Below are positions 30,036-64,000 of a stretch of DNA of 64,000 bases, piece by piece. This stretch comes from a virus. Within the stretch, counting starts at the first letter, position 1. Every line of letters begins with the position of its first letter. Position numbers and translations under genes: made by a program. The stretch is taken from IMG/VR virus record IMGVR_UViG_3300036853_000134, positions 2,936-66,935 of that record; one strand, 5' to 3'. The notes under the pieces are model-generated. The model did no database searches and was not told the DNA's origin. It was given only the letters and a program-made list of their open reading frames with translations.

Positions 30036-30413
30036 TCAGGCTGGGGCGCTGTGAGTTTCTTTATGCCTTATAAGATATTCTATCGCTTTTGCAAGAGAAG
30101 TTTGATTATCTTTGAAAAATCCCAGCCCCGAATTACACGATGAACATAAAAGAGCACGAACATTGCCGGATTCGTGGCAGTGATCGACAACTAATGGGAT
30201 TGCCGCAAATTCAGCCGCCGGACCATCGCGGAGCACATAATCAAGATCAAATTTCGTCGCGCAAATCGAACAGCACCCATCCTGGGCGAGATACATCACT
30301 TTATATTCCTTAAACGTAATTCCGTATGTTTTCTGTAGTCTCAGGTTCAGAAGTGTATGTTTCGACTTTCCCAGTGATTTAACCTTGTCCCTGTACTTAT
30401 CAACGTTTTCCAT
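30036..30413 (-). CDS. Endonuclease VII family His-Me finger nuclease
   Basis: YGIT...Q-G-CSIC...[28 protein letters not shown]. Confidence 0.9.
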   Translation of the reverse strand: [125 protein letters not shown]

Positions 30414-30858
30414 TCGCTACCTGCTTCCGATTAACCGTCCAAGATTCCGAGGGTTTGACGCACGCATAGCTACCTATTAGCTATGCAAAGTATCCGTCCT
30501 GAGTTCGTCGGGCCTATACTTCGCGCGGGTTCGTTGAGTTAGGGTTACGGCTATTCGTCTTACCGCTCGTTACCGATTTATCGTGCCACCCAACCACAGG
30601 GGAAGTTCGTCCTTAGGCTCTTTGATTCCCGTTGCTCCCAAGCGAAACGTTGCCCGTCTTACAGATGTTTGGTCTGCGGGTCGTTTCCCCTGCCACTGCC
30701 AGAATCGTTATTGTCGCCATAACCTGACTTCCTTCGTATACCGCAGGTGCTACCTTGACACGCCAGGGAATTGTTCAGCGATCCCTGAGTTTGTGAAGAC
30801 AGAACTTTCCCGACTCGTTAGTTGTGCTTAATTGAGTTGTTCGATTCTGATGGTCACG
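30414..30858 (-). ncRNA. Putative large structured ncRNA, copy A
   Basis: No credible ORF; promoter upstream; six motif blocks collinear with 56142-56586; complementary segments. Confidence 0.65.
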
Positions 30859-30864
30859 TTTGCG

Positions 30865-30892
30865 ACTATACGCCGATTTTCCTTGAAGTCAA
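30865..30892 (-). promoter_or_regulatory. Sigma70-type promoter of ncRNA A
   Basis: TTGACT-16-TATAGT. Confidence 0.65.
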
Positions 30893-30954: not shown

Positions 30955-31009
30955 TGCCCGGTACGCATCTTGGTCTGATGGTCACGCACTTTCCAAAAGC
31001 TACCGGGCA
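30955..31009. repeat. Hairpin containing a copy of the ncRNA A 5' 13-mer
   Basis: TGCCCGGTA/TACCGGGCA stem; TCTGATGGTCACG at 30974-30986 is identical to 30846-30858. Confidence 0.75.
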
Positions 31010-31192
31010 TTACTGCGTTTTGGGTCGTTTCTCGCACCTATTCTCTTCCGCGATTACCGCCGCGATCCCCAGCAATCCGTAATTCCGTTTATCCAAAGTC
31101 CAGGCGAGCACCTATCCGCAGTGACTGCATTTCAGGCTATTGGCAGGTGAAAAGTCTTTCGGCCTCGGTCCGATTATCTCAGGATGCGGCAT
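31010..31192 (-). pseudogene. Small Zn-finger gene interrupted by an amber codon
   Basis: MPHPEII...KCSHCG*VLAW...; in-frame TAG at 31112-31114. Confidence 0.4.
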
Positions 31193-31373
31193 TCTTCCCT
31201 TTCGGCCCAGGCTTCTTATTCTTCAGGTTCAACACGTCAACGACCCGCAACAGTTTTGCGGGAGTATGGGTGATCAGATTGCCGCGCTTTATATGCTGGG
31301 CAATCGACTGTCTTTTCAGCTTTATCAGCCTTGCGGCTTGCGCCTGTGTAATCAATTCGTTTTCATTAACCAT
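31179..31373 (-). CDS. Small HTH DNA-binding protein
   Basis: LITQAQAARLIKLKRQSIAQHIKRGNL; basic KPGPK tail. Confidence 0.75.
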   Translation of the reverse strand: MVNENELITQAQAARLIKLKRQSIAQHIKRGNLITHTPAKLLRVVDVLNLKNKKPGPKGKNAAS

Positions 31374-34197: not shown

Positions 34198-34581
34198 TCA
34201 TTTTGCACCGTTCCGTTTCTTTGCTCTGGCGCATCGCTGCCTAATCTTATCCGGCATCCACGGACGCAGACGATCACGAGCATTGTCCGCAATCGTCCCC
34301 GTTTCCAGGTGGTTAGGATTGCAGCACGGCGGGTTATCACATTTATGCCTCATAACTAATCTTTCACCCTTTTCATTAAATTCTGGATAGGGTCCGAATG
34401 AAAATACATACGCGCCTTGTGGTGCTGTATTCACACCGATTAGAGCGCAAGAAAAGTAGCCATAGCCCTTTTTGGTGCGGCCGCGCTGTCATTCCCAGCA
34501 TTGGCGAGGATTCCCAATCCGAATACGCTCCCAAAAGCCAGAACGGACGCGCTCCAGATATTTATGATCCGCCTTGGTCAT
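34198..34581 (-). pseudogene. HNH homing endonuclease with nonsense mutation
   Basis: FWERI...CWE*Q (TGA at 34489-34491 where W is expected)...GYG...VMRHKCDNPPCCNPNHLETGT. Confidence 0.75.
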
Positions 34582-42568: not shown

Positions 42569-42919
42569 TCATACGGCTAACTCGTATCCATCATCGGTCG
42601 GACGAATAAATTTGACCGGCTTCTTATATTCATCGGCGATCAATATTTCCGCGCTGATACCTTTGGATTCCCGCCAACCATCAATCATCAGTATCCAAAG
42701 TTCGTCACAGCGGGATATGAATTCCGTATCGAACTTGCGCCAGAATCCCCAATCGCCGGGCATCATGAACAAAACGGCTATTGGATGATTATGAACTATG
42801 GGCGAAAAAACGACCGTATCGTTTTGCGTATAGAACGCGACGCATTGAAGGGCGGCATGGTAGCGCGCCTCTCTTATGCCAGGGTCTTTGTGTGAGTATG
42901 GCGACGCAAGATAAATCAC
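42569..42919 (-). CDS. DUF1937 / nucleoside deoxyribosyltransferase-like protein
   Basis: MIYLASPYSH...FSPIVHNH...GWRESKGISAE. Confidence 0.85.
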   Translation of the reverse strand: MIYLASPYSHKDPGIREARYHAALQCVAFYTQNDTVVFSPIVHNHPIAVLFMMPGDWGFWRKFDTEFISRCDELWILMIDGWRESKGISAEILIADEYKKPVKFIRPTDDGYELAV

Positions 42920-45222
42920 GCGGTTTCCTCCATGTTCTCAATTCCGGCAAACAGCCCCTGAGCGCCAGACGCATAAATAGCGCGCTCCATATTCTTGCTG
43001 GCGGCTCTGAAATATTCCGGCTTTAATTCGCAGCCGATACCTTTGCGTCCAAGTAGCAGTGATTGATAAACCTCAGTGCCAATACCAAGAAAAGGGGTCA
43101 GGACTATTTCACCGGGATTTGACCACAATCGCACGCACCTTTCAACGGTCTCTAATTGAAGTGGTGCAATATGTCGCTCATCCTCTTGCCCCCGACCTTC
43201 CGCCGCGCTCAACGTTGCGGTTTCTTTTATGTCGTACCAGACGGGATGCGCCCATTTGATCCATTGTTCGTGACTCACGTCGGGATGGATTGCAACTTCG
43301 TTTTCACCGGGCTTGTGGAATATCAGAATATAATCTGCAAGCGCAGGGCGCAGCCAGCTCGAATCTTTTCGCAACTGGACGAACATCAGGCTTTTCGATT
43401 TCGTTCTAATTGCCTGTGATTGCGGGTTCTTTTGTATACAAATCTCCCCATAATATATAAAGCCTTTGTCGATAAAATGCCTGATTGTTTCCCCGCGAAA
43501 ATCCATCATTCCGATGTAACCGTCCCGACCCTTCATCATTGGGATTTGCGCGACGTGAACACACATTGAGCGGCCGGGCTTGAGCACGCGGAGCATATTT
43601 GACGAGATGAATTGAAAGTGCTCCCAGAATTCCGTCATCGTTTTACAGTTACCCAGATCCCTTTCGGTTGCCGAATAAGTGAATAGCGACCCGAATGGCG
43701 GAGAGTAAACCGAAAGATCAATGGAATTGTCAGGCAGTCCCGCAAGCACTTCGCAGGAATCACCGTGATAGATTGAATAGTCGTCGCCGTGTTTCTGGTT
43801 CATCACCTGAACATCAGCCGCTTTGGTGCCGAGCCATTTTGGTATTTGCATTGGCTGTACCGCGTCGTAATCCAGACGCGTCGTAACTTGTCCAATTTCC
43901 GCTTTCTCAAATTCGGCAACGTGTTTGATTAGCTCTTTCGTCATCGTGTCCGCCTCTCTCTCTTTTCGCAAAACGTTATCAAAAATATCCATTTCAATAT
44001 CGGTCAGCACAATATAAACATTGACCGGCCGTGTTTGACCGAATCGCCACTCGCGCCGGATACCCTGAAAATATTCCTCATAGCTGTCATTCATTCCAAG
44101 GAAGAGCATGCGCGCGGCCGATTGAAAGTTCATCCCCTGCCCGGCAATCTTAGGCTTACTTATCATCGTCTTGACTTCGCCCCGACCGAAGCCCATCAGG
44201 GTTTCCGTTTTACGCTCGATTGAATCACTGCCCTGAACGTTGACCGCATTGCCCAGTGCTTTTGCCAGCGCATCAGCTTCATCGTTCAGTCCGCACCAAA
44301 TCAGCCATTGCTCATCCGGTTCTCGCTGGATTATTTCGACGGCCGCCTTGACCCGCTCGGCGATTGTTGATTTACGGACCTTTGCGCGGTCACCTACACC
44401 ATGCAGACGGGTCGGGAATAATTGCCCATCGGGAACATAAGTTGACGGGACGACAACGGGAATGATGCTCAACTCCGGCAAATCATATCCAGTGTCATCA
44501 TGTCCAATATCCGATGGCTTGAGCAGCGACATTGCCCAGGATGCAAGCCACTTGTGGAACGCATCACGTCCATGTTTTTTCAATCGCCAGCCATCTTCGT
44601 CATGAACAAAAAACGTCGATAGCATTTCCGTTCGTGTCATCACGCCAAGGAATTCGGCATGGTTCGCAATCTCCGAGATATCATTAGGGGCAGGTGTGGC
44701 TGTACAGCAAAGACGCAGCGGAATTACAGAGCAAAGCTTTATCAGTAAAGATCGGCGTTTGCCTTCAAAATGCTTCAGGCAGCTTGATTCGTCCAGAACG
44801 ACCGCGCCGAATTTCGACATATTGAAATGCTCAATCATCTCGTAATTGATAATCGTGATACCGGATTCCGGCGACTCTTCCATCTTGCGCGCATACGTGA
44901 CCTTGATGCCCCACCTCGCGCCTTCTTCAACAGTTTGATGAGCAACCGCAAGCGGAGCGATTACAAGCGAGCGTCGCGCGGCCAGTTCGGCCCAGGACAA
45001 CTGCATAATCGTCTTGCCAAGGCCAGTGGTAGCGAAAAGCGCGGATCGTCCTTTACGCAGTGACCATCGCACTAAATCACGTTGAAACGGAAATAGATTC
45101 TTATTTAAGTCAGCGGCGTCAACCTCAAATCCGGCCGCAGATGCAACGACAGCTTTCGTTGAAAGAAACTCTTGATAAGAACTTGATATTGCGTTAGATT
45201 GCTCAACAGGCATTTGATTCAC
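42916..45222 (-). CDS. SNF2-like helicase fused to an N4C/N6A DNA methyltransferase
   Basis: TGLGKT, VLDESS, TATPAPND, GQGMNFQ, WRFGQ; then SVYSPPF and TPFLGIGTE. Confidence 0.9.
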   Translation of the reverse strand: MNQMPVEQSNAISSSYQEFLSTKAVVASAAGFEVDAADLNKNLFPFQRDLVRWSLRKGRSALFATTGLGKTIMQLSWAELAARRSLVIAPLAVAHQTVEEGARWGIKVTYARKMEESPESGITIINYEMIEHFNMSKFGAVVLDESSCLKHFEGKRRSLLIKLCSVIPLRLCCTATPAPNDISEIANHAEFLGVMTRTEMLSTFFVHDEDGWRLKKHGRDAFHKWLASWAMSLLKPSDIGHDDTGYDLPELSIIPVVVPSTYVPDGQLFPTRLHGVGDRAKVRKSTIAERVKAAVEIIQREPDEQWLIWCGLNDEADALAKALGNAVNVQGSDSIERKTETLMGFGRGEVKTMISKPKIAGQGMNFQSAARMLFLGMNDSYEEYFQGIRREWRFGQTRPVNVYIVLTDIEMDIFDNVLRKEREADTMTKELIKHVAEFEKAEIGQVTTRLDYDAVQPMQIPKWLGTKAADVQVMNQKHGDDYSIYHGDSCEVLAGLPDNSIDLSVYSPPFGSLFTYSATERDLGNCKTMTEFWEHFQFISSNMLRVLKPGRSMCVHVAQIPMMKGRDGYIGMMDFRGETIRHFIDKGFIYYGEICIQKNPQSQAIRTKSKSLMFVQLRKDSSWLRPALADYILIFHKPGENEVAIHPDVSHEQWIKWAHPVWYDIKETATLSAAEGRGQEDERHIAPLQLETVERCVRLWSNPGEIVLTPFLGIGTEVYQSLLLGRKGIGCELKPEYFRAASKNMERAIYASGAQGLFAGIENMEETA

Positions 45223-47257: not shown

Positions 47258-47935
47258 CTATTGCGGCGAATACCTGGCCGCGAATCTTAAAACTGCGTGA
47301 AATTGTCCCTTTTCCAGCATTGCAATCTTCCGCTCTTCACGCTGTCGAAGTTTTTCATACCCGGCGTTTAGGTTGACGAATGTAATCTCTTTCGGTTTCT
47401 TCGACTTTGAGACCTGCTCTTTAAACCGGTCTAGTCGCTTTCGCTTGCCCTTGAGCACGCCAAACTTTAAGCATCTGCGAATCCGTTTCGTTTCTCTCGC
47501 CAGATACCTATCACGCATCCGCTGCCATTCGACTGGATGGATATGGGCGAACCGCTTAAATTGCCAGTCGCGTGCGTTTTGCTCATCTTCGGTTTGAAGC
47601 GTTTTTATGTAGGTCAGCAGCGTAAGAAGCTCATTCTCTCTTTCGATTTCATAAAAGAGAATGCCATGCTTTGAGCATAGATCGCGCTTCTGCTTATCAA
47701 CAGAAAGCTGGCGCTTAAACCCCTCAATATCTTTGTGGAAAAACGGATTGTATTGTGAATGCTGGACGCCTTGAACCTCTACCGCGATTCTTAAATCTTC
47801 GATATATAAGTCAAGTTCCATAGGCTTGCCTAGGTCGGATTTGAGCCAGTCAAAACGGTGATTTTCTTTGACTACCAAACCCTCGATACAATTAAGACGG
47901 CGCGTGGCTTCTTCTTGTAATTTGGAACTTCCCAA
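47258..47935 (-). CDS. PD-(D/E)XK (Vsr/DUF559-like) endonuclease
   Basis: ELDLYIEDLRIAVEVQGVQH...D--KRDLC--HGI. Confidence 0.75.
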   Translation of the reverse strand: MGSSKLQEEATRRLNCIEGLVVKENHRFDWLKSDLGKPMELDLYIEDLRIAVEVQGVQHSQYNPFFHKDIEGFKRQLSVDKQKRDLCSKHGILFYEIERENELLTLLTYIKTLQTEDEQNARDWQFKRFAHIHPVEWQRMRDRYLARETKRIRRCLKFGVLKGKRKRLDRFKEQVSKSKKPKEITFVNLNAGYEKLRQREERKIAMLEKGQFHAVLRFAARYSPQ

Positions 47936-51081: not shown

Positions 51082-51633
51082 TCAGCGCTCCAGTGCCTCC
51101 CTTTTTCCGTTAAACCGCCCCGTCGTCAGGTCGTTTTGCACTTTACCCGTTCTCTTTCGCTCTCTGTGATAATGGCACCTTGAGCAAACCGCTTGCACGT
51201 CCTCGTGGTGAATTGCAGCATACCCAAGGTAGTGGTCGTATTCGTGGCGACGACCACCGGGAGCGTATTGATGCCCGCAGTCCACACAAGGAAGATTATC
51301 CGGATCATCCAATATCCCCGCATGGACAAAATAATTAATACGTCCTCGTGCTTGCTTTCTATCGCCATCACGGGCCGGAACAAAAGCACGGCCTTTTTCT
51401 GGGCGATTCCTTTTTACATATCTGAGACGATGCTTGATATTTCTGCCATCCCGGCAGCCCACCGCAAGGCCATCACTGCGCGATGAGTCTCTTCCGAAAG
51501 ACTCTTTCGGGTGCCAGCGCTTGCAGGCTACACACCATTTATTACCAGCGTCCAGATTGCGCCTATATTGTTGCTCAGTGGTTCCCAGCAGCCTAGCCGC
51601 CGACTTGATCGCCCCGTCGCGTGTTTGCGCCAT
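51082..51633 (-). CDS. HNH endonuclease
   Basis: CVAC...C; CVDCG...HEYDHY...VCSRCH. Confidence 0.8.
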   Translation of the reverse strand: MAQTRDGAIKSAARLLGTTEQQYRRNLDAGNKWCVACKRWHPKESFGRDSSRSDGLAVGCRDGRNIKHRLRYVKRNRPEKGRAFVPARDGDRKQARGRINYFVHAGILDDPDNLPCVDCGHQYAPGGRRHEYDHYLGYAAIHHEDVQAVCSRCHYHRERKRTGKVQNDLTTGRFNGKREALER

Positions 51634-55636: not shown

Positions 55637-55843
55637 TTATTTGCCATTGGACGCCTTCTTTCCGTTCTTTGCGGGCTTGCCGTCAAACGGAGTCCGCTTA
55701 GTCTGTCCGGGCTTCCAAAATCCGTTACTGACCATCCATAACTGAAAACCCTTTTCGAGTATCCAATACATTTTGAGACCGGTTTTCTCAGACATCAACG
55801 ATAACTCTTGATGTGCTTCGTCTGAAATCTTTATCGTTTTCAT
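55637..55843 (-). CDS. Ribbon-helix-helix regulator
   Basis: MKTIKISDEAHQELSLMSEKTG; promoter TTGACA-17-TATTGT directly upstream. Confidence 0.7.
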   Translation of the reverse strand: MKTIKISDEAHQELSLMSEKTGLKMYWILEKGFQLWMVSNGFWKPGQTKRTPFDGKPAKNGKKASNGK

Positions 55844-56000
55844 ATTCAACACAATAAACCCGTCCAGTCTACTTGTCAACACTTATTTCTACTTTTGGAC
55901 ACTAACTGCAAAAATAAATTTATCGCAAAATTATTTCATCCCATCAGGCGCGGGGTTCGCTTGAGCAGGATTGGCGCGAGGCTGGGCGGGTAAAAATCAA

Positions 56001-56051
56001 AACCGCTCAGCTTGTGTTACAAGGACTGGTGGGTTCTTGTGCTGAGCGGTT
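56001..56051. repeat. Hairpin containing a copy of the ncRNA B 5' 11-mer
   Basis: AACCGCTCAGC/GCTGAGCGGTT stem; GTGTTACAAGG at 56014-56024 is identical to 56142-56152. Confidence 0.75.
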
Positions 56052-56105
56052 ATGAATGTCCATGCGCTGGATTAACGGTTTTCATATTAACTGAAAAGAA
56101 TATCG

Positions 56106-56135
56106 TTGACAACCGAAATCGAATCGTCGTATATT
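56106..56135 (+). promoter_or_regulatory. Sigma70-type promoter of ncRNA B
   Basis: TTGACA-18-TATATT. Confidence 0.7.
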
Positions 56136-56141
56136 GACCGC

Positions 56142-56586
56142 GTGTTACAAGGGAATCCAAACAATTCCCAATTTTGAATCCGTAATTCCTTCAACCTGTC
56201 ACTTTGTAAGTGAACGTTTTGAAGCTTTAAATACGGCGTGTCAGTAGAAGGCCACGACCGAGCTTGTCAAAGGGTAAGGCGGGGTCAAGAATCCGACCGA
56301 AGGCGATACGAAGTCGCGGGATTCATCAGCGAGGAGCAATCCAAGCAAATCAATCTTCCCCGGTGTGGAAGTGGCGCGATGAGGTTTAAGCAGTCGGGAG
56401 CGGTCGAATAGTCGCGCAATATAAATCAAAGGACACAACGGCACACCGAACAAGACCGTTGAAACGAAACGACACGCCCGGACTCTGGAAACAATTCCGT
56501 GGGGATGAAACAGAGATTTGAGCCGGGGACGGTTCTTATCTCCCAGTGTCCACGCGTAAGGATGTAATCGGATAGGAGTTGAGTAA
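56142..56586 (+). ncRNA. Putative large structured ncRNA, copy B
   Basis: Collinear motif blocks shared with 30414-30858; GNRA hairpin GAGCCG-GGGA-CGGTTC; long-range complementarity. Confidence 0.65.
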
Positions 56587-57144
56587 GTGGCAGTTTCAAA
56601 AAAAATAATAGAACAGCCGACGATCAAAGAAATGCTGGTTAAGCTATGGTCGGTTGCGGCAGCGCAGCCAGGGTACGATTCCATCGCTTGGCGTCAATTT
56701 CAAGGCGCTCTGGTAAAAGCCGGGATCAAGCCACTTGTCATCACAGACGATGATATTAAGTCTGGTGCGGCTGTTGAATTGCCGATTATCAGAAAGAAGA
56801 TTCGCGGGCTTTGCTATACACACGCAGAGATTAATTTGCCGGAAGTTCAAGCGTTGCGAGCGATGCCGTATAGACAGTATCTTACAACTGCCCACTGGAA
56901 AGCCGTTAGAGAAAGGGCGATTCGTGAGGCAAACGGCGAATGCAGAATGTGCGGCCATTCGAGAAAACTAATCGGGCACCATCAGAACTATGATTTTGTG
57001 GGATGCGAAGAAAGCAAGGATGTGATCGCAATTTGTAATGGCTGTCACGAAAAACATCACGGAAAGAGCAAGCGCAAGAGAAGGCTATTCAATCGGAAAT
57101 CACGCGGCGATTATTACGGACTTACGCGACAGTCTGATATTTGA
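56587..57144 (+). CDS. HNH endonuclease with N-terminal extension
   Basis: YRQYLTTAHWKAVR...CRMCG...HHQNY...G-E---DVIAICNGCHEKHH; SD AGGAG. Confidence 0.85.
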   Translation: MAVSKKIIEQPTIKEMLVKLWSVAAAQPGYDSIAWRQFQGALVKAGIKPLVITDDDIKSGAAVELPIIRKKIRGLCYTHAEINLPEVQALRAMPYRQYLTTAHWKAVRERAIREANGECRMCGHSRKLIGHHQNYDFVGCEESKDVIAICNGCHEKHHGKSKRKRRLFNRKSRGDYYGLTRQSDI

Positions 57145-57175
57145 TTTAACGATTAGCCGCCCACGGGAGGACGCG

Positions 57176-58491
57176 ATGGACGAGAAATCAGCAATAGACC
57201 GTGATAGATATAATATAGGAATTGCAAAAGCGCTGAAGTCTGATTTAGCACAGCAGGCCCGAGAACACTATAGCCGGCTCTCGGACAGCGCCAACGAATT
57301 CAACTCCGTCATTCCTAGCGCGATTAACGTATGGGAATGTATTGACGATGTTCTGATGGGAGAAATTAGCCCTGATATTCCAACTGCGAGCCTTCTTCAG
57401 TCTGTCAACGATGCGCGTCTCCGCTCTATCCGGTCATTGATCGACTACGCACTACGCGTCAAGGTAGCCGCCGCTGTCCAGGCGCAGCGCGAAAAAGACG
57501 CGGGGATCGTGGAAACAATGATGGCAAGCTATGAATATTGTCCTGATAACGACAAGATTACCGTAGGCGGGATGCGCTCACTGATAAAAATGGCCATCGA
57601 AAAGATAAAGGAGCAGCCGTGACTATCCGAGAATTCTTTCGCCGTATCTTTAAACCGTATCCGAGATGCTCCGTGAAAGGCTGCATTCTTCGTCATGGAC
57701 TATTCCAATCAGGCAAGAAGTATCACGTCCATTGCACGACCGACGGCACCATGTTTGTGCGCGGGATCGATATAATTCTGGAAAAGATTAAGGAGCAATC
57801 GTGATAACCCTAAAAGACATTGATTTCAAGGAATTCGACATAGCGGAGGACCGGTTGACGCTGATTAAGACCGGCATCCGCGATTTGCTGCAAGAGGCTC
57901 TGGTTACGGCGCAACGGGCAGAGCGGGAAAGGTGCGCGGGGATTGTACGTAGCTACAAGAATAACGGAATTGATCTGCCGGAAAACCCGCACGATTTCAA
58001 TCATTGCATAGAAGCAGCGGCCCGTGAAATGGAGGACGGAAAGTTATGATTACGATACCGCAAGCTGAACCGGGCGAGATCGAAGTGGGAGAACTCTACC
58101 TAATGACGTGTAAGGAATTTGGGACGCCGAGGCTTGTCACGATAGACAAAAATATAGACGGCAAATACTGGGAACTGATGACTGCGGGCCACGCAAGGCA
58201 TGTCGATATGACGCCTGGTATTAAGCTGTTCGGCCCAATCGAAATCCGGCAGGGGAAGGAAGGTGAGTGATGAGTTTATTTCCAGGCGAAGCCGAAGCGA
58301 TTGAAACTGTTAAGCGGTTAGGCGCTCAGTTTGGCTACGGCAATCTTATCCATCATTTGAAAGACGCGTGGTCAGAGTCGCTACAGAAACAAAACGCCAT
58401 CTTTGATAAACAGACAGCAGATAGAGCGGCGGGCCACGTCTGCGCGTGGTGCAAGGTTGACGGACGAACAGGTAAGAAGGTCAAAGGGTGA
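57176..58491 (+). other. Operon of small hypothetical genes (57176, 57619, 57801, 58046, 58267)
   Basis: Stop/start-overlapping ORFs with SD sequences. Confidence 0.55.
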
Positions 58492-58561: not shown

Positions 58562-61500
58562 TCAGTGAGTGCCTTGCAGTAGCTTCGTAAATCGTTGCCA
58601 CGCCTCTTTTCGTGCGGTCACAGCCCTACCGTAAGTCTCTCTCTGCGCGGGTGTGAGCGATTGCTTGAACTTCGCTTCATTCGTGGCGCTGCCGGTAAAC
58701 AGCGGTCTGAATCCGGCGTCCGCGTACTCCGCTTTTTCCGTACCCGCGTGAAATCCCGCCCATTCGTCAATGGCTTTCTTGATCTTCGTCCGAGCTTCCA
58801 GCCGGTCGTCGATCCCTGGTTTCGTCCCGCGCAATTCACCGAGCAATCGCTTAATCTCAGATTCGGCAGTCGGTAAGTCGGCGGTTTCCAGCGACCGTTT
58901 TAGCTGCGTCAACTCTGACGCGCCACCGCTGAAAGTATCCATTGGGATGCGATTCGCCTGCTTGAACTTCGTGGCGAGCGACTGCACGTCTCTAATCTCC
59001 TGTGGCGTGCGTTTGTAGGTCTGCGTACCGATACCGATGACTGTCGGCAGGGTTTTCACGAATCCCGGCGCGCCAGAGTCCTTGTAGCCTTCGTACAGGT
59101 CACGTCCTACCATTGGAGCGACCATGTTTGCCGCCGCGCCTTTCCATGTGAATTTATCCCCGACGATATTCGAGCCCATCTTATAATCGATTGCTGTACC
59201 CAGCGCTGGTGCTGTCTTTCCACGTAGATAATGAAGCGCGACGTTGCCCGGTTGCTGAGCCTGTGTATTTTCAATACCGCGAGCATTATTCGACAGTCCG
59301 CGCACAAGCTGAAACGCGACTCTCATATCCTGATTCTGTCCGCGCGTGAGATCATAGCTGGTATTTCCCGCTCTGACCTTCAGAAAATCCGGGTCGTCTG
59401 GATCTGTACTTACTTTCAGTCCAGCCGCAGCCGCGAGCCCCAGCGCCGTAACAACACCGCCATAATAGAGTCCCAATGTCCGCCCGGCGATTCGACGCAT
59501 CGCTGGATTCTTGCTTGCCAGCCCATTGAGCATCTGAAAACGCGATGCCATATATCGTGGACTAAACAGGAACAGATTGGCTACTCCGGTCGCGACTTTT
59601 GCCTCATGTGGATACCATCCCTCGCCCAGGTCGCCGCGCCCGGTCGTTCGATTGATGAACTTCGCGAGTTGCTGGAATGCTTCTGGGTTCTTCTCTGGAG
59701 TGTAACCACCTGCCTTATCAGACTTCATTAACTGCGATTCAACTTGATATGCGCGAATCCTTTGCCAGTCGAGGAACGCGGAATATGCGCGCTCGGAACC
59801 AGCGTAGAGCCTACCAATATATGGAATCTTTTCGGGTAGCTTCGATAGAAACGCCTCTTCACGTCCAGCGGATTGCAGCGGATCACCGGCAAAGTATAGT
59901 CCCGCTTTCTTGGCTTCACCAAAAAACGGCATCTTTTGAATCTCATCATAGACGCGGGTTTGCCCGACTTCCGACATCGCCTGAAATTGTTTTATGAATG
60001 CCTCTGCCGCGATCTTTGGATGCGCGAATACCTGGACCAATCCCTGGCGACCACCAGCGGATATGTCGATAGAGGTCAGTAGTGATTTCGGCGCGTTGAT
60101 TACATCGGATGCTGCGCGCAGGACCTTTGCACCGATACCCTCATTCATCCGTTTGATAATCTGCTGAACTTCGCGAGTCGCCGCCCGGTTCTCGTTTTGC
60201 AGCTTGACATTTTCAGCGGTCAGCGGCAATTTTGCTTTCGGTGTTTTTTCAAAGTTGCCCGTCCGCAACATCTCTTCGAGCTCAGCCTGACGCTTGACGA
60301 GTCGTTTACGGAGCGCCTCATTCTGGCTGGCCTGCTTCTTTGCGATCGCCGCCGGGTCAGCATCTTTGAGAGCTTGGTAGGTTTTCTTTGCGGCGTCGCG
60401 TCGCTGTTTGAGCGCTTCCAATTGCAGGTTGGTCACCGGGTCGGCCTTGGCTTTCGCGGTAAAATCCTTGTCGCTTATCCGCCGATCATATTCGGTAATC
60501 GACTTTTCAAGTGAGCGTTGCGCCATTTCGATCCGCTGGGCATCGGTCATCCTGCGCGGTCCGTTGATAGCGTCAAGGGTTGCGCGCAAAGAATCCCGTT
60601 CGGCCTGCAATGCTTTCGCCTCGGCGTCTAATGGCACAGGCGTCCGTTGTGGCGGCTTCTCGCCAGTCTTTATCTGCCGATCCAGATCCTGAATTGCATT
60701 CTTCAGCCGCGTCTTCACACCATCAAGCGCCGACTTCTGTTGCTGCTCCGGTGACCGCTCACTGCCTTCAATTTTAATACCGTGTTCTCGCTTTAGCTGA
60801 TTCAATCGCTGGGTCCGCGCGCGTTCTTCGGCTGTCGGCGGATCGGGTTGGTATCCACTTCGCGGCGGTCGTTTACCAGCAACGATATCCTCTTCAGCGG
60901 AAACGTCTCGCAATTCCCGTTTGATCTTGCGCAATTCGGTGTCAATCGCATCCTTTGATGGGCGGCTGGTTTTACCTGATCCGCTAATTGCATCCCGAAT
61001 ATCACGATAGGTGAATCCATCTGGCAGGGCATCTTTTACATCGGAGTAGATAGAATCCACTATATCGACTGCTTTAACCATCCCAGCTTCGATTCTATTG
61101 CGCGCCATTTTCGTTAACAGCGTCACGGCTTCGGCTGGCAAAGTCAAGCCGACGACCGCGCCAGCTTCAGGACCGCCCAGCCCCTTTGACGGCGGCTCTT
61201 TCGACTTGAACAGGTTTTTAAACTCGGCCTTCAGCGAATCGAAATCATTATCGAGTTTCGCCTTTGTGACCGTCCGCCTGGTCCGTCGCGCCGCAGTCTT
61301 TACTTCATCGTCGATCTTTTTAACCGCTCTATCAGCGGCTCTCTGTGCGTCAATCTCATCCTGTTTGGCTAAATCTTCGGACGTGCGCTTGATCGTCTCG
61401 GACAATTCTTTCAATCGAACGGCGGTCTTTTCCGGAACGGGCTGGCCATCGTTTGCGATCTTCGCACGGCGCATCAGATTGTCGAGCGAATAGTCCTCAC

Positions 61501-64000
61501 GGATCATCATTCGGCGAATTGCCAGCGCTCGCCCAGCGTGCGTACCCGTTCTATCGGCCGCGAAGTCGTTGTTTTCGATATGCTGTTTTACCGCGTCCAA
61601 TTGACCGTTAAGACTAATTTGCGCCTCTTCGTTACCCGATTTCTGCGCCTCGGCGATCTGCTCCTCAAGCGACGCCTGTTCATTTTGCAGACGCATCCGG
61701 TCGTATATGAGCGCAGCGCTTTCAGCATCGGTCAGTACACGCGGCTTTGTGGTCAATTCCTTGACTGACTGTCGATAAGCTTCAGGGTCATTGTCGACGA
61801 TTGCCCGTCCCTGGTCGTAGGATGTACCGAACGATTTACGCGCCAACTTCTCAATTGGCGGCGCTCCACGAGCCTCACGCTCCAAATCTACTTGGCTGTT
61901 TTTAATCCCGGTCACACGCGGCTCAGGCTCTGGTGTTTCGCCTAATTCTTCGTGTGCCTTATTGAACAATTCCCGCAGGTGTGGCTTCACCTCATCGCCA
62001 ATCTCTAAAATCATCTGCCGCGAGAAGTCGGCAAACGTCCTGACGCCGCGCTCAATATGGTAGCCAGCGACGTACAGCCAGTCCTTCAACTCTTCGGTTG
62101 TGATCGGTCCAGAACGGCGCAGATTCTTATCAGGATTCAGGATACGATCAAGCGCTTCGTCCGCACCTTCTTTGGTAAAGAGCGTGTTTTGCTCGCCAGA
62201 TGACGCCGTAGGCAACTCTATCTGCGTATCGAACATGTCGGGAGTCTTCGTGTCTTTTGGCGCAACTGTCGTCTTTTCAACGACATTCTTCCGCCCGGTC
62301 TTCATCCCGATACGCAACAATTCCTTGTCGTTCTCGATCTTCGCCTTGGCTTTATTCTTTTCGGTCTCTAATTTACCAGCGGCTTCGGCTCGGTCGATAT
62401 CTCGCTGAAAGTCTTCTGGCGTTGCCTCCGGACGATTCGCGGCATCGTGAAAATCTTTTAACGTGCCGTAGTGTTCAATCGGCGCTGGCGGTTCGTAGCC
62501 TTTGGGTAGATAAACATATTCCTGATCGCCACCCATTGAGCCTTTGACAGCAATGAAATCTTCTTTTGGAAATGAGAATTCGCGGACGGACTTACCGCCG
62601 TGTGTGTAGTTCCGCGCCTCTCCCGCTGTTCCCGCAACGAAATCACCAGGTCGGAGTTCTGCGCGGCCAGTGCCCCGATAGACCGTCATTGGTTCTTTAC
62701 CGGTCAAGCGCTTCGCGTCGCGGCCAAGTTTCCCTATTTCTTCTTCTGTCGCGTATGGGCTTCGCTGGGAAACACGCTGAAGTTTTTTAAAGATTGCGTC
62801 GGCCACGTCATCAGAGAACTTCTCGCCGGGTTTCACCGACCCGACCTGATTGGCGATAATTCGCTTTGCCGCTTCGTAGCTTTTACCTTTGATCTTGTCG
62901 GCGAGTCTTGTTAGCTCTGATGGGATTTGCTCTGGCGTTGATTCTCGCTCTTGGCTACCGCTCTCCTGAAAATCTGCTGCCTCAATGCCATTCTCTTTAA
63001 TGTCGGTAGCGCGCTGTATGAGGTTGTCGATTGTTTCTGGTGTGAGTCCGTGCCTTGCGCCTTCGCTCCTGAGTTGTTGGGCACCGTCATCGACCGCTGA
63101 GTCGAAGGCTTTGCCAAGCTCACTGTCAGGGTCTTTAAGTTCGGCTTCAACAAGCTTACTTTCGCGTTGAAAAGCTTCAGTGGCGTCTTGTGATTGTTGG
63201 TGTCGCTCATAATCTGCGTCCAATCCTTTATCGATTATATTCTGATCTCGATACTTTGAATAGGTTTTCTTTCCCGCCAGGTCGTCTTCAATTGCGCTCA
63301 TCATGTCGGAAATAGTCGCGTCTTCTTCCAGGAAGTGCGATTCTTTCATCGCCTCAAGCATTCTATCGGGCGATAATCCATTCTTAGTAAACAGCCCAGT
63401 CGTGCCCGATTCCTTTGCGCGCAGTCGATTAAGCTCGCCGCCAAGATCGGCATCAGCTTTGAACCCGCGATTGGTATCGTTCGGTCGTCGCGCAAACTCA
63501 GAGATACTTCTGTCTTCGTGCTCTGCTTTTGGCGGCCTCGGTCGCTTGGTGGTTAGCCCTTGTCGGTTCGCGTCCGATTCGATCTTCGCTCGCGCCTCCG
63601 CTTCCATCGTGCGAGCTTCCTGCAACTTGCCCTTTGCCACAGTCAGGTCCATTCGAATTGAGCCTTTATTGTCGCGTGCGGTAGCGTTGCTCAGGCGGGT
63701 TTGCAGTTTATCGACTTGCTTTTTCGCAAGTTCAATCGCTTGCTTTGCGCCCGCCAGCATTCCATGGCCGGGAGAATTGACGGATTTAGGATTGACCAGC
63801 TTTAGCGGTGCATCTGGATCGACAGGTTTTCTGCTCCTTGACGTACCGGATTCTGGCTGTTGCAATTCAGGGTGCTCTCGCAGGACTTCTGGCGGTATCT
63901 CTTTGCCTTCCTTGATTGCCTGCGTAATACCCTGCTGTGCCGCCATCTGTGCGGGGCTTAACTTTTCAGACGGCCTGCGCAGCGGTTCTGTCTTGCGCGC
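58562..64000 (-). CDS. Giant internal virion / large polyvalent protein (N-terminus beyond the window)
   Basis: Frame is open to 64000 (over 1800 aa). ART-like VYRG...PGDFV...EYVY segment, long coiled coils, and a C-terminal helical/hydrophobic domain (LFSPRY, STDPDDPDFLK). Confidence 0.8.
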   Translation of the reverse strand, partial: ARKTEPLRRPSEKLSPAQMAAQQGITQAIKEGKEIPPEVLREHPELQQPESGTSRSRKPVDPDAPLKLVNPKSVNSPGHGMLAGAKQAIELAKKQVDKLQTRLSNATARDNKGSIRMDLTVAKGKLQEARTMEAEARAKIESDANRQGLTTKRPRPPKAEHEDRSISEFARRPNDTNRGFKADADLGGELNRLRAKESGTTGLFTKNGLSPDRMLEAMKESHFLEEDATISDMMSAIEDDLAGKKTYSKYRDQNIIDKGLDADYERHQQSQDATEAFQRESKLVEAELKDPDSELGKAFDSAVDDGAQQLRSEGARHGLTPETIDNLIQRATDIKENGIEAADFQESGSQERESTPEQIPSELTRLADKIKGKSYEAAKRIIANQVGSVKPGEKFSDDVADAIFKKLQRVSQRSPYATEEEIGKLGRDAKRLTGKEPMTVYRGTGRAELRPGDFVAGTAGEARNYTHGGKSVREFSFPKEDFIAVKGSMGGDQEYVYLPKGYEPPAPIEHYGTLKDFHDAANRPEATPEDFQRDIDRAEAAGKLETEKNKAKAKIENDKELLRIGMKTGRKNVVEKTTVAPKDTKTPDMFDTQIELPTASSGEQNTLFTKEGADEALDRILNPDKNLRRSGPITTEELKDWLYVAGYHIERGVRTFADFSRQMILEIGDEVKPHLRELFNKAHEELGETPEPEPRVTGIKNSQVDLEREARGAPPIEKLARKSFGTSYDQGRAIVDNDPEAYRQSVKELTTKPRVLTDAESAALIYDRMRLQNEQASLEEQIAEAQKSGNEEAQISLNGQLDAVKQHIENNDFAADRTGTHAGRALAIRRMMIREDYSLDNLMRRAKIANDGQPVPEKTAVRLKELSETIKRTSEDLAKQDEIDAQRAADRAVKKIDDEVKTAARRTRRTVTKAKLDNDFDSLKAEFKNLFKSKEPPSKGLGGPEAGAVVGLTLPAEAVTLLTKMARNRIEAGMVKAVDIVDSIYSDVKDALPDGFTYRDIRDAISGSGKTSRPSKDAIDTELRKIKRELRDVSAEEDIVAGKRPPRSGYQPDPPTAEERARTQRLNQLKREHGIKIEGSERSPEQQQKSALDGVKTRLKNAIQDLDRQIKTGEKPPQRTPVPLDAEAKALQAERDSLRATLDAINGPRRMTDAQRIEMAQRSLEKSITEYDRRISDKDFTAKAKADPVTNLQLEALKQRRDAAKKTYQALKDADPAAIAKKQASQNEALRKRLVKRQAELEEMLRTGNFEKTPKAKLPLTAENVKLQNENRAATREVQQIIKRMNEGIGAKVLRAASDVINAPKSLLTSIDISAGGRQGLVQVFAHPKIAAEAFIKQFQAMSEVGQTRVYDEIQKMPFFGEAKKAGLYFAGDPLQSAGREEAFLSKLPEKIPYIGRLYAGSERAYSAFLDWQRIRAYQVESQLMKSDKAGGYTPEKNPEAFQQLAKFINRTTGRGDLGEGWYPHEAKVATGVANLFLFSPRYMASRFQMLNGLASKNPAMRRIAGRTLGLYYGGVVTALGLAAAAGLKVSTDPDDPDFLKVRAGNTSYDLTRGQNQDMRVAFQLVRGLSNNARGIENTQAQQPGNVALHYLRGKTAPALGTAIDYKMGSNIVGDKFTWKGAAANMVAPMVGRDLYEGYKDSGAPGFVKTLPTVIGIGTQTYKRTPQEIRDVQSLATKFKQANRIPMDTFSGGASELTQLKRSLETADLPTAESEIKRLLGELRGTKPGIDDRLEARTKIKKAIDEWAGFHAGTEKAEYADAGFRPLFTGSATNEAKFKQSLTPAQRETYGRAVTARKEAWQRFTKLLQGTH

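Follow-up and report, generated by a model that had tools for sequence, protein, structure and literature searches.

What is the role of the roughly 445 nucleotides (nt) of non-coding sequence that separate a phage promoter from the nuclease gene behind it? The question is raised by a metagenome-derived soil phage of ~67 kb (IMG/VR record IMGVR_UViG_3300036853_000134; 66,935 bases in total, with direct terminal repeats and rated complete), of which bases 2936-66935 were analysed here. This whole stretch of 64,000 nt is referred to as the window, and all positions are given in it. At 56106-57144, a sigma-70-type promoter, a long leader and a gene for an HNH (His-Me finger) nuclease follow one another (copy B); a second such module, copy A, lies elsewhere in the window on the minus strand. 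A sequence-only reading of this DNA had proposed that the leader RNA may switch conformation and be bound by the nuclease. We find that an island of ~400 non-coding nt, reaching from the 5' hairpin of the leader to the Shine-Dalgarno (SD) sequence, is far better conserved in other samples than both of its flanks. Our preferred reading, held tentatively and with slightly less than even confidence, is that the leader is a conserved cis-acting 5' leader RNA that controls the downstream operon and is not an RNA partner of the HNH protein.

A long non-coding leader follows the copy B promoter

The copy B promoter (56106-56135, plus strand) consists of TTGACA (56106-56111) and TATATT (56130-56135) separated by an 18-nt spacer, and agrees with the consensus at 11 of 12 positions. 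With the transcription start placed at ~56142, a position inferred from the -10 hexamer, the leader extends for ~445 nt to a GTG codon at 56587. The SD sequence, AGGAG, occupies 56574-56578, and together with the start codon spans 56574-56589. The gene itself (56587-57144, plus strand) encodes 185 amino acids (aa). Its GTG start is supported by a homologue, also of 185 aa, on a 1,382-nt Logan contig, which is 78% identical over 100% of the length. All parts of the arrangement first described for this locus, namely TTGACA-18-TATATT, about 445 non-coding nt, SD/GTG and a 185-aa HNH protein with a basic tail, are present.

The leader of both copies encodes no protein. Stop codons of mixed kinds occur six or seven times in each sense frame of the copy B leader and 4-10 times per sense frame across both copies; recoding of stop codons was ruled out, as each sense frame contains two or all three kinds of stop. 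A 147-aa antisense open reading frame (ORF) was also rejected as a gene, having no homologue in an index of 5.8 billion proteins and carrying natural variants that are not codon-like (1 of 10 at a third codon position).

Known classes of RNA did not account for the leader either. Covariance models of Rfam 15 gave no match at gathering score in the whole window and, at E<=10, one snoRNA-type chance match per copy region and nothing else. No tRNA or tmRNA was found. A group I intron is not indicated, with no match to Intron_gpI at E<=10 and a promoter, not an exon, as 5' flank. Nor is a type III toxin-antitoxin system, as the leader has scattered 10-14-nt repeats only, with no tandem arrays, and no terminator precedes the gene. 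Three terminator-like sites were listed, none of them between 56170 and the HNH start codon, and a strong hairpin at 56513-56542 has no T run behind it.

Several candidate signals in the leader were considered and set aside. A CGAA-type repeated motif for protein binding was not compelling (12 observed, 5 expected). The motif AACAATTCC occurs five times in the window against 0.75 expected, with three copies in the leaders and two in a giant ORF, where they form no hairpins. Duplex searches for anti-SD pairing gave unlike partners in copies A and B.

The leader body is conserved between unlike flanks

A k-mer index of sequencing runs listed six DNA holders of this sequence, four of which (X2-X5) were compared over 55880-57200. 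X2 is the same phage, represented by two contigs of 100% identity. From X3 and X4 (freshwater, 2025, maybe one campaign) and X5 (soil, 2017), short contigs match 56177-56581 (plus strand) only, with 95-99% identity. These contigs have a depth of 2-4.5, and stretches without contig cover in X2-X5 were not counted as evidence. The limits of the match are visible within contigs: two extend 47 and 88 nt into unlike sequence before 56177, and two extend 15 nt each into unlike sequence after 56577 and 56581. The leader is strongly constrained.

The unlike 5' sequence of X3 and X4 contains a hairpin at the place of the 5' hairpin of copy B (H1, described below), with a stem one pair shorter, followed by an A/T-rich run. 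Since both features are kept, the leader continues there but has diverged; the first ~35 leader bases differ among relatives, and the body is kept. On the 3' side, the conserved SD is followed by an ATG in differing contexts in X3 and X5. The island is found next to the SD before at least four distinct start contexts, those of copy A, copy B, X3 and X5.

Beyond these runs, the leader was not recovered. Neither copy B nor copy A matched any of 50,697 phage records by blastn; exact and degenerate leader patterns had 0 matches in IMG/VR, JGI metagenome contigs and GTDB genome contigs; and the records of three terminase relatives (27-52% identity) contained no leader match. A survey of structured RNAs in phages gives 10,006 candidates (PMC10690425). 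In the literature searched we met no description of such a leader, which is not proof that none is in print.

Two related promoter-leader modules are present in the phage

Copy A is taken here as 30892-30414 of the minus strand plus the gene at 30413-30036. Its promoter (30865-30892) consists of TTGACT, a 16-nt spacer and TATAGT, and its leader of 445 nt (30414-30858) carries H1 at 30788-30763 and the core common to both copies at 30605-30548. The gene that follows (30036-30413, minus strand) encodes a 125-aa nuclease of the Endonuclease VII (EndoVII) family, scoring 72.2 bits against PF02945 (cut-off 23.6). It is the first gene of a methylase-terminase-portal operon, the late operon; the genes after it encode a DNA methylase, terminase subunits and portal. 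The distance from predicted transcription start to start codon is 445 nt in both leaders, and the orientation relative to the downstream gene is the same.

A local alignment of the two leaders scored 43, compared with 26.2+-3.9 for shuffled sequences (reached in 0 of 300 shuffles) and 37 for the best unrelated piece of the window. A semi-global alignment with free end gaps was not above shuffles, 267 of 300 reaching its score, and the copies are therefore old. Blocks common to both appear in the same order: a hairpin ending in AACAAUUCCC, then GGCGUGUCA, AUACGAAG, a core of ~60 nt, GGACGGUU and UAAUCGGA, the last directly preceding the SD in both leaders. In copy B the core lies at 56355-56414 (plus strand) and reads CTTCCCCnGTG..GTGGCnCGAT..GAGCGGT..CGAATAGnCG. 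A profile of both copies, run against the 66,935-base genome, found these two places only (next match, E 3.3) and hence no third leader copy. The two-copy promoter-leader-nuclease arrangement, first noticed from the sequence alone, was borne out by the alignment and by the profile, and we take copies A and B to be promoter-leader modules that stem from an ancient duplication.

One further relation between the copies was noted. The 13 nt at the 5' edge of the island (56177-56189, plus strand; AATCCGTAATTCC) are perfectly complementary to 31074-31086, upstream of the copy A promoter, with the complement in the sense orientation of copy A; at a BLAST E of 0.15-1.1, this may be chance.

Direct repeats with the same spacing flank both promoters

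Each promoter lies between two copies of an exact direct repeat. At copy B an 11-nt repeat, GTGTTACAAGG, occurs at 56014-56024 (plus strand), a candidate operator, and again at 56142-56152, the second copy lying 128 nt further on and starting where transcription is predicted to begin. At copy A a 13-nt repeat, CGTGACCATCAGA, occurs on the minus strand at 30974-30986 and at 30846-30858, the second copy opening the leader. The spacing is 128 nt in both modules; the downstream repeat starts ~7 nt after the -10 hexamer, and the upstream repeat ends 82 nt before the -35. The repeat sequences are module-specific, and each holds a small palindrome. The segments between the repeats (117 and 115 nt) are alike, with a score of 42 against 21.7+-7.2 that was reached by 3 of 500 shuffles; the duplicated module is therefore ~600 nt long and includes the promoter. 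A miniature inverted-repeat element (MITE) with target-site duplications was rejected as the origin of the 128-nt repeats, the segment between them lacking terminal inverted repeats.

We infer that the repeats are module-specific operator pairs, which may serve as paired operators for DNA looping. Genes for candidate small regulators adjoin them, at 55637-55882 (ribbon-helix-helix-like by eye) and 31179-31373 (a weak excisionase-type match). The upstream 11-nt repeat of copy B also sits in the 29-nt loop of a 15-nt inverted repeat (55997-56011/56041-56055, 93% complementary). On the minus strand, 55997-56055 is followed by a T-rich run; this terminator-like structure faces a leftward early promoter at 55879-55851.

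Predicted folding of the leader RNA

The 5' hairpin H1 (GGGAAU/AUUCCC; 56151-56169, plus strand) is predicted with P 0.90 in copy B. A hairpin is also predicted at the corresponding place in copy A (P 0.87) and in the X3/X4 contigs, with differing stems. A closing helix between 56178-56182 and 56569-56573 (P 0.78-0.87) coincides with the ends of the island, and the hairpin at 56513-56542 (plus strand), capped by a GGGA tetraloop, has P 1.00 in the model. The 5' end of the copy B transcript pairs in the model with the SD/start codon (P 0.79-0.94).

Natural variants preserve the pairs and the GNRA loop of the hairpin at 56513-56542. The change 56528 G>A, present in X3, X4 and X5, converts the loop from GGGA to GGAA, both of the GNRA type. 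Eight of the ten listed variant positions are unpaired in the minimum free energy (MFE) fold, though 53% of the bases in that range form pairs. The other two, 56521 A>G and 56522 G>A, both from a single X5 contig, change an A-U pair to G-U and a G-U pair to A-U in the hairpin 56520-56535; such wobble pairs are possible on the plus strand only. Variants that would disrupt the fold number 0 of 10, compared with 1.9 expected (P 0.067).

The proposed switch pairings occur at chance frequency

The switch had been proposed from two complementary pairs, both of which exist: an 8-bp pair between GGCGTGTC (56235-56242) and GACACGCC (56471-56478), and a 7-bp pair between TCCCCGG (56357-56363) and CCGGGGA (56523-56529). 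The leader contains one perfect 8-mer complement, compared with 1.42 in shuffled sequences (at least as many in 69% of 500 shuffles), and five perfect 7-mer complements, compared with 5.99.

The 8-bp pair has an ensemble probability of 0.37, and a fold constrained to contain it lies 1.0 kcal/mol above the MFE. Its formation is incompatible with a 7-bp pairing between blocks conserved in A and B, CGUGUCA:UGGCRCG, which also uses GGCGTGTC and has P 0.22 in B and 0.0 in A. Both pairs had been said to compete with helices conserved in copy A. This stands in part: the 8-bp pair is competitive and excludes the A/B pairing, but that pairing has P 0.0 in copy A itself. The notion that helices are conserved between the copies found no support, the helices common to A and B being at chance level (6, compared with 5.35).

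For the CCGGGGA:TCCCCGG pair, P is 0.0 and the cost 7.1 kcal/mol; it also crosses the 8-bp pair, so that the two cannot be nested together. The 56528 G>A variant, found in three of three related runs, breaks it, and no change is listed at 56358 in X3 and X4, which cover that position. The CCGGGGA segment belongs instead to the GNRA hairpin. A switch through both pairings is not supported, the matches being at chance level and the 7-bp pair having P 0.0 and being broken by a natural variant. A conformational switch is possible, but it finds no support beyond a match of chance frequency.

The copy B nuclease resembles an ordinary phage HNH protein

The HNH domain of the copy B protein covers residues ~85-160. 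PHROG families of HNH endonucleases match it at E 7e-10 and weaker, and phrog_8060, which scores best (E 7.4e-12), is a family of unassigned function; Pfam returned no family for the protein at E<=0.1. At E<=1e-3, 15,751 representatives match residues ~85-160, and below 1e-30 only the protein itself is found. C119, C122, H131, H132, C150, C153, H154 and H158 (CxxC, HH, CxxCH..H) are invariant in 40 sequences. The structural model has pLDDT >90 at residues 90-150, with two strands and a helix, and its top fold matches are HNH domains, but at E 0.08-0.25 only. These residues form a standard zinc-bound HNH domain, with catalytic histidines, zinc ligands in two CxxC pairs and a beta-beta-alpha fold.

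The N-terminal part is helical and poorly modelled (pLDDT 50-60); for this domain, an Atlas search and a fold search yielded nothing usable and no informative relatives. The extension that had been singled out is present, but it is not special: at least 70 residues precede the HNH domain in 103 of the 150 best relatives (median 106.5), the domain being usually C-terminal, and an extension is therefore the rule in this HNH family. The C-terminal basic tail, KSKRKRRLFNRKSR, is also present in the 78%-identical homologue, although few members of the family have one (7 of 150 relatives). The structural model shows it as disordered, and DNA binding would fit it as well as RNA binding. The full protein has no relative in IMG/VR or JGI metagenome contigs.

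The leader is absent from the loci of nuclease relatives searched

A His-Me finger nuclease is the first gene after both leaders (HNH in B, EndoVII in A), which is unlikely by chance with about five such genes among ~95. Apart from a CxxC, these two proteins share no relationship (hhalign probability 0.4%), though the leaders are homologous. The long leader is present before two of the five nuclease genes of the phage only; the HNH_3, homing-type (47258-47935) and EndoVII-like (51082-51633) genes lack it.

It had also been asked whether the closest HNH homologues carry the upstream RNA. None does in 80 IMG/VR loci of HNH-domain relatives, which are distant homologues and do not include the 78%-identical one; the gap upstream of the relatives was <100 nt in 47 of the 75 loci measured and at least 300 nt in seven. 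Similarly, the leader was absent from all 83 loci fetched with the copy A EndoVII and terminase, where nhmmer and blastn searches with both leaders gave 25-nt matches at E 0.16 or worse as the best result. Smith-Waterman scans returned nothing outstanding. The idea of an RNA partner is weakened because HNH homologues mostly lack the element, and we read the copy B protein as an ordinary phage HNH and not as an RNA partner.

Long gaps also occur upstream of EndoVII relatives: 14 of 78 IMG/VR loci have >300 nt lacking an ORF of at least 70 aa (examples are L002, L014, L015, L028, L080 and L021). None is like the leader described here; other long leaders may exist there.

Genomic setting of the two modules

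Late and structural genes, including those for small and large terminase and portal, run leftward from ~30.4 kb, and replication and recombination genes, encoding a RecT-like protein, a helicase-methylase fusion and a resolvase-like protein, run leftward from ~55.9 kb. The copy B locus is the start point of rightward transcription and faces away from the leftward early operon.

Five homing- or HNH-type nuclease genes were found in the phage: the copy A EndoVII (30036-30413), an HNH_3 protein (34198-34434), a homing-endonuclease-like protein (47258-47935) with ~235 nt of non-coding sequence 5' of the gene, an EndoVII-like HNH protein (51082-51633) and the copy B HNH (56587-57144). Downstream of the last, the longest ORF is 57038-57622 (plus strand), which overlaps the final 107 nt of the HNH gene; an ATG at 57176, 32 nt past the HNH stop, is its likelier start, and the resulting 148-aa product has no Pfam or PHROG match. 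A 1,794-aa ORF at 58562-63946 (minus strand), without a PHROG family match, converges on the operon of small genes 3' of HNH. The early region contains a 768-aa fusion of helicase and DNA methyltransferase (42916-45222, minus strand) and an AraC-type helix-turn-helix (HTH) regulator (PF12833; 48832-49275, minus strand).

Discussion

If the leader is a cis-acting regulator of the operon behind it, the sigma-70-type promoter, which lies between two identical copies of a short DNA site (the first 128 nt upstream of the start point, the second at it), would transcribe a non-coding leader of ~445 nt ending in the ribosome-binding site (RBS) of the first operon gene. The leader would probably fold as modelled, with a hairpin at its 5' end, a large domain (~400 nt) whose two ends pair to close it and, shortly before the SD, a hairpin capped by a GNRA loop. 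It would most likely set expression of the downstream operon, through mRNA stability, access to the SD and start codon, or transcription read-through. Its presence in two copies, its conservation, its lack of coding capacity and its position next to the SD in four contexts are direct observations; we infer from them that it acts at the RNA level, is folded and has a regulatory role.

A number of results weigh against this reading. Fold energies are ordinary (Z -0.84 for copy B, +0.74 for copy A, -0.82 for the island and -0.65 for its antisense). In an anchored alignment, six helices are possible in both copies, compared with 5.35 in column shuffles, and a common helix of 7 bp arises in 13 of 100 shuffles. 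The test on natural variants is also weak (P 0.067), coming from contigs of depth 2-4.5 with both wobble changes on one contig, and the sequences available for covariation are two diverged copies and short, near-identical contigs. A conserved DNA sequence does not by itself separate a function in RNA from one in DNA, and the k-mer index holders listed included no RNA run. Taken together, the evidence for a folded RNA is suggestive but not conclusive.

The same facts can be read in other ways. The island might be a stand-alone, trans-acting phage RNA gene of ~400 nt with a job of its own (host takeover, anti-defence or a part of the particle, for example), the nuclease genes having settled beside it, since a conserved sequence offers a good site for homing, and being merely co-transcribed. 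We consider this unlikely. It would suit the sharp ends of the island, its closure by end pairing in the model, the differing genes after A, B, X3 and X5 and the five homing-type nuclease genes of the phage, and 95-99% identity over ~400 nt is above that of most cis-leaders. However, island and gene are not separated by a terminator, no T run following the strong hairpin (56513-56542), and the conserved stretch reaches into the SD in every context; the RNA also belongs to no Rfam family and has an ordinary fold energy. Alternatively, the island may work as DNA, as a regulatory or nucleoprotein platform, a boundary for module recombination or an origin- or packaging-type site, with the RNA incidental. 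That conservation is seen at the DNA level, with ordinary fold energies on both strands, agrees with this, as does the commonness in mosaic phages of near-identical segments beside unrelated ones; the exact direct repeats 128 nt apart around both promoters also imply that DNA-binding proteins act here. Yet in three contexts outside this phage the end of the island falls exactly at the SD, for which there is no DNA rationale; the G-U pairs and the GNRA loop that the natural variants preserve exist on the sense strand only; the island has no iterons or long internal repeats; and its orientation to the downstream gene is the same in both copies. On balance we regard a DNA element as quite unlikely.

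The strong form of the sequence-only reading appears very unlikely. In it, the RNA would serve the nuclease as cofactor, scaffold or guide, would alternate between two long-range pairings and would bind to the basic tail or the N-terminal domain. Both copies do stand before His-Me finger nucleases, of which there are about five among ~95 genes; the 78% homologue retains the basic tail, which is rare in the family (7 of 150); the 8-bp pairing has an ensemble probability of 0.37; and the first ~35 bases diverge among relatives while the body is conserved. Against this, the RNAs are homologous and the nucleases are not (hhalign 0.4%), the element is found in 0 of 80 HNH-domain loci and 0 of 83 EndoVII/terminase loci, both pairings are at chance frequency with the 7-bp pair broken by natural variants, and there is no match to HEARO or omega-RNA. 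A bolder version is more improbable still: that the ~400-nt RNA is a novel partner, or scaffold, of miniature His-Me finger nucleases, forming an RNA-directed or RNA-gated cutter far smaller than IscB that is mobile between phages, is paired with different small nucleases and possibly has a variable, DNA-matching 5' end. The idea of a DNA-matching end derives from the exact recurrence of the first 11-13 bases of the leader 128 nt upstream in both modules.

A cis-acting leader of this kind has partial counterparts among known systems. In T4-type phages, RBS-sequestering leaders, which are short local hairpins, precede free-standing and intron-encoded homing endonuclease genes. As in those leaders, a phage nuclease gene lies here behind an RNA structure that, in the model, is able to mask the translation start; unlike them, the present leader comprises a domain of 400 nt, has its own promoter and two paralogous copies, and is conserved above the nuclease itself. 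The antitermination RNAs lambda nut and HK022 put are 30-70 nt long. They share with the leader the occurrence of two related cis elements per genome, each just after an operon promoter and with a hairpin near the 5' end, but neither a boxA- or put-like match nor an N- or Q-like gene turned up here, and the 400-nt body has no counterpart in them. In P4-type immunity, a long leader contains two sites complementary to the CI RNA, which pairs with them. The present leader likewise has one segment, GGCGUGUC, with two alternative complementary partners, whereas it has no C4/CI-type Rfam match, its partners are at chance level and it contains no internal terminators.

Further parallels are with omega-RNA and with large phage RNAs. 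Like IscB and its omega-RNA, copy B encodes a long RNA directly upstream of an HNH-domain gene. HEARO gave no match even at E 10, however, and the protein differs from IscB in having 185 aa and an HNH domain only, with no RuvC reported by Pfam or PHROGs; IscB chains appeared in its fold search at E 0.58-0.89 only, and the leader also precedes an EndoVII gene. GOLLD and ROOL, both in Rfam, are large stand-alone RNA genes associated with phages and prophages and often near tRNAs. The leader resembles them in being several hundred nt long, in phage genomes and highly conserved, and differs in having no Rfam match and in abutting an SD.

As a functional RNA, the leader would represent a new phage RNA element, unusually long at ~400 nt, without an Rfam family and conserved above its neighbouring genes across soil and freshwater samples, and would add to the few large non-coding RNAs of phages. 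It heads the packaging/late operon and a second operon, and might then provide a handle on the timing of both in an uncultured phage and give insight into how nuclease genes are restrained. The 128-nt-spaced pairs of sites at both promoters point to a tidy, testable regulatory circuit.

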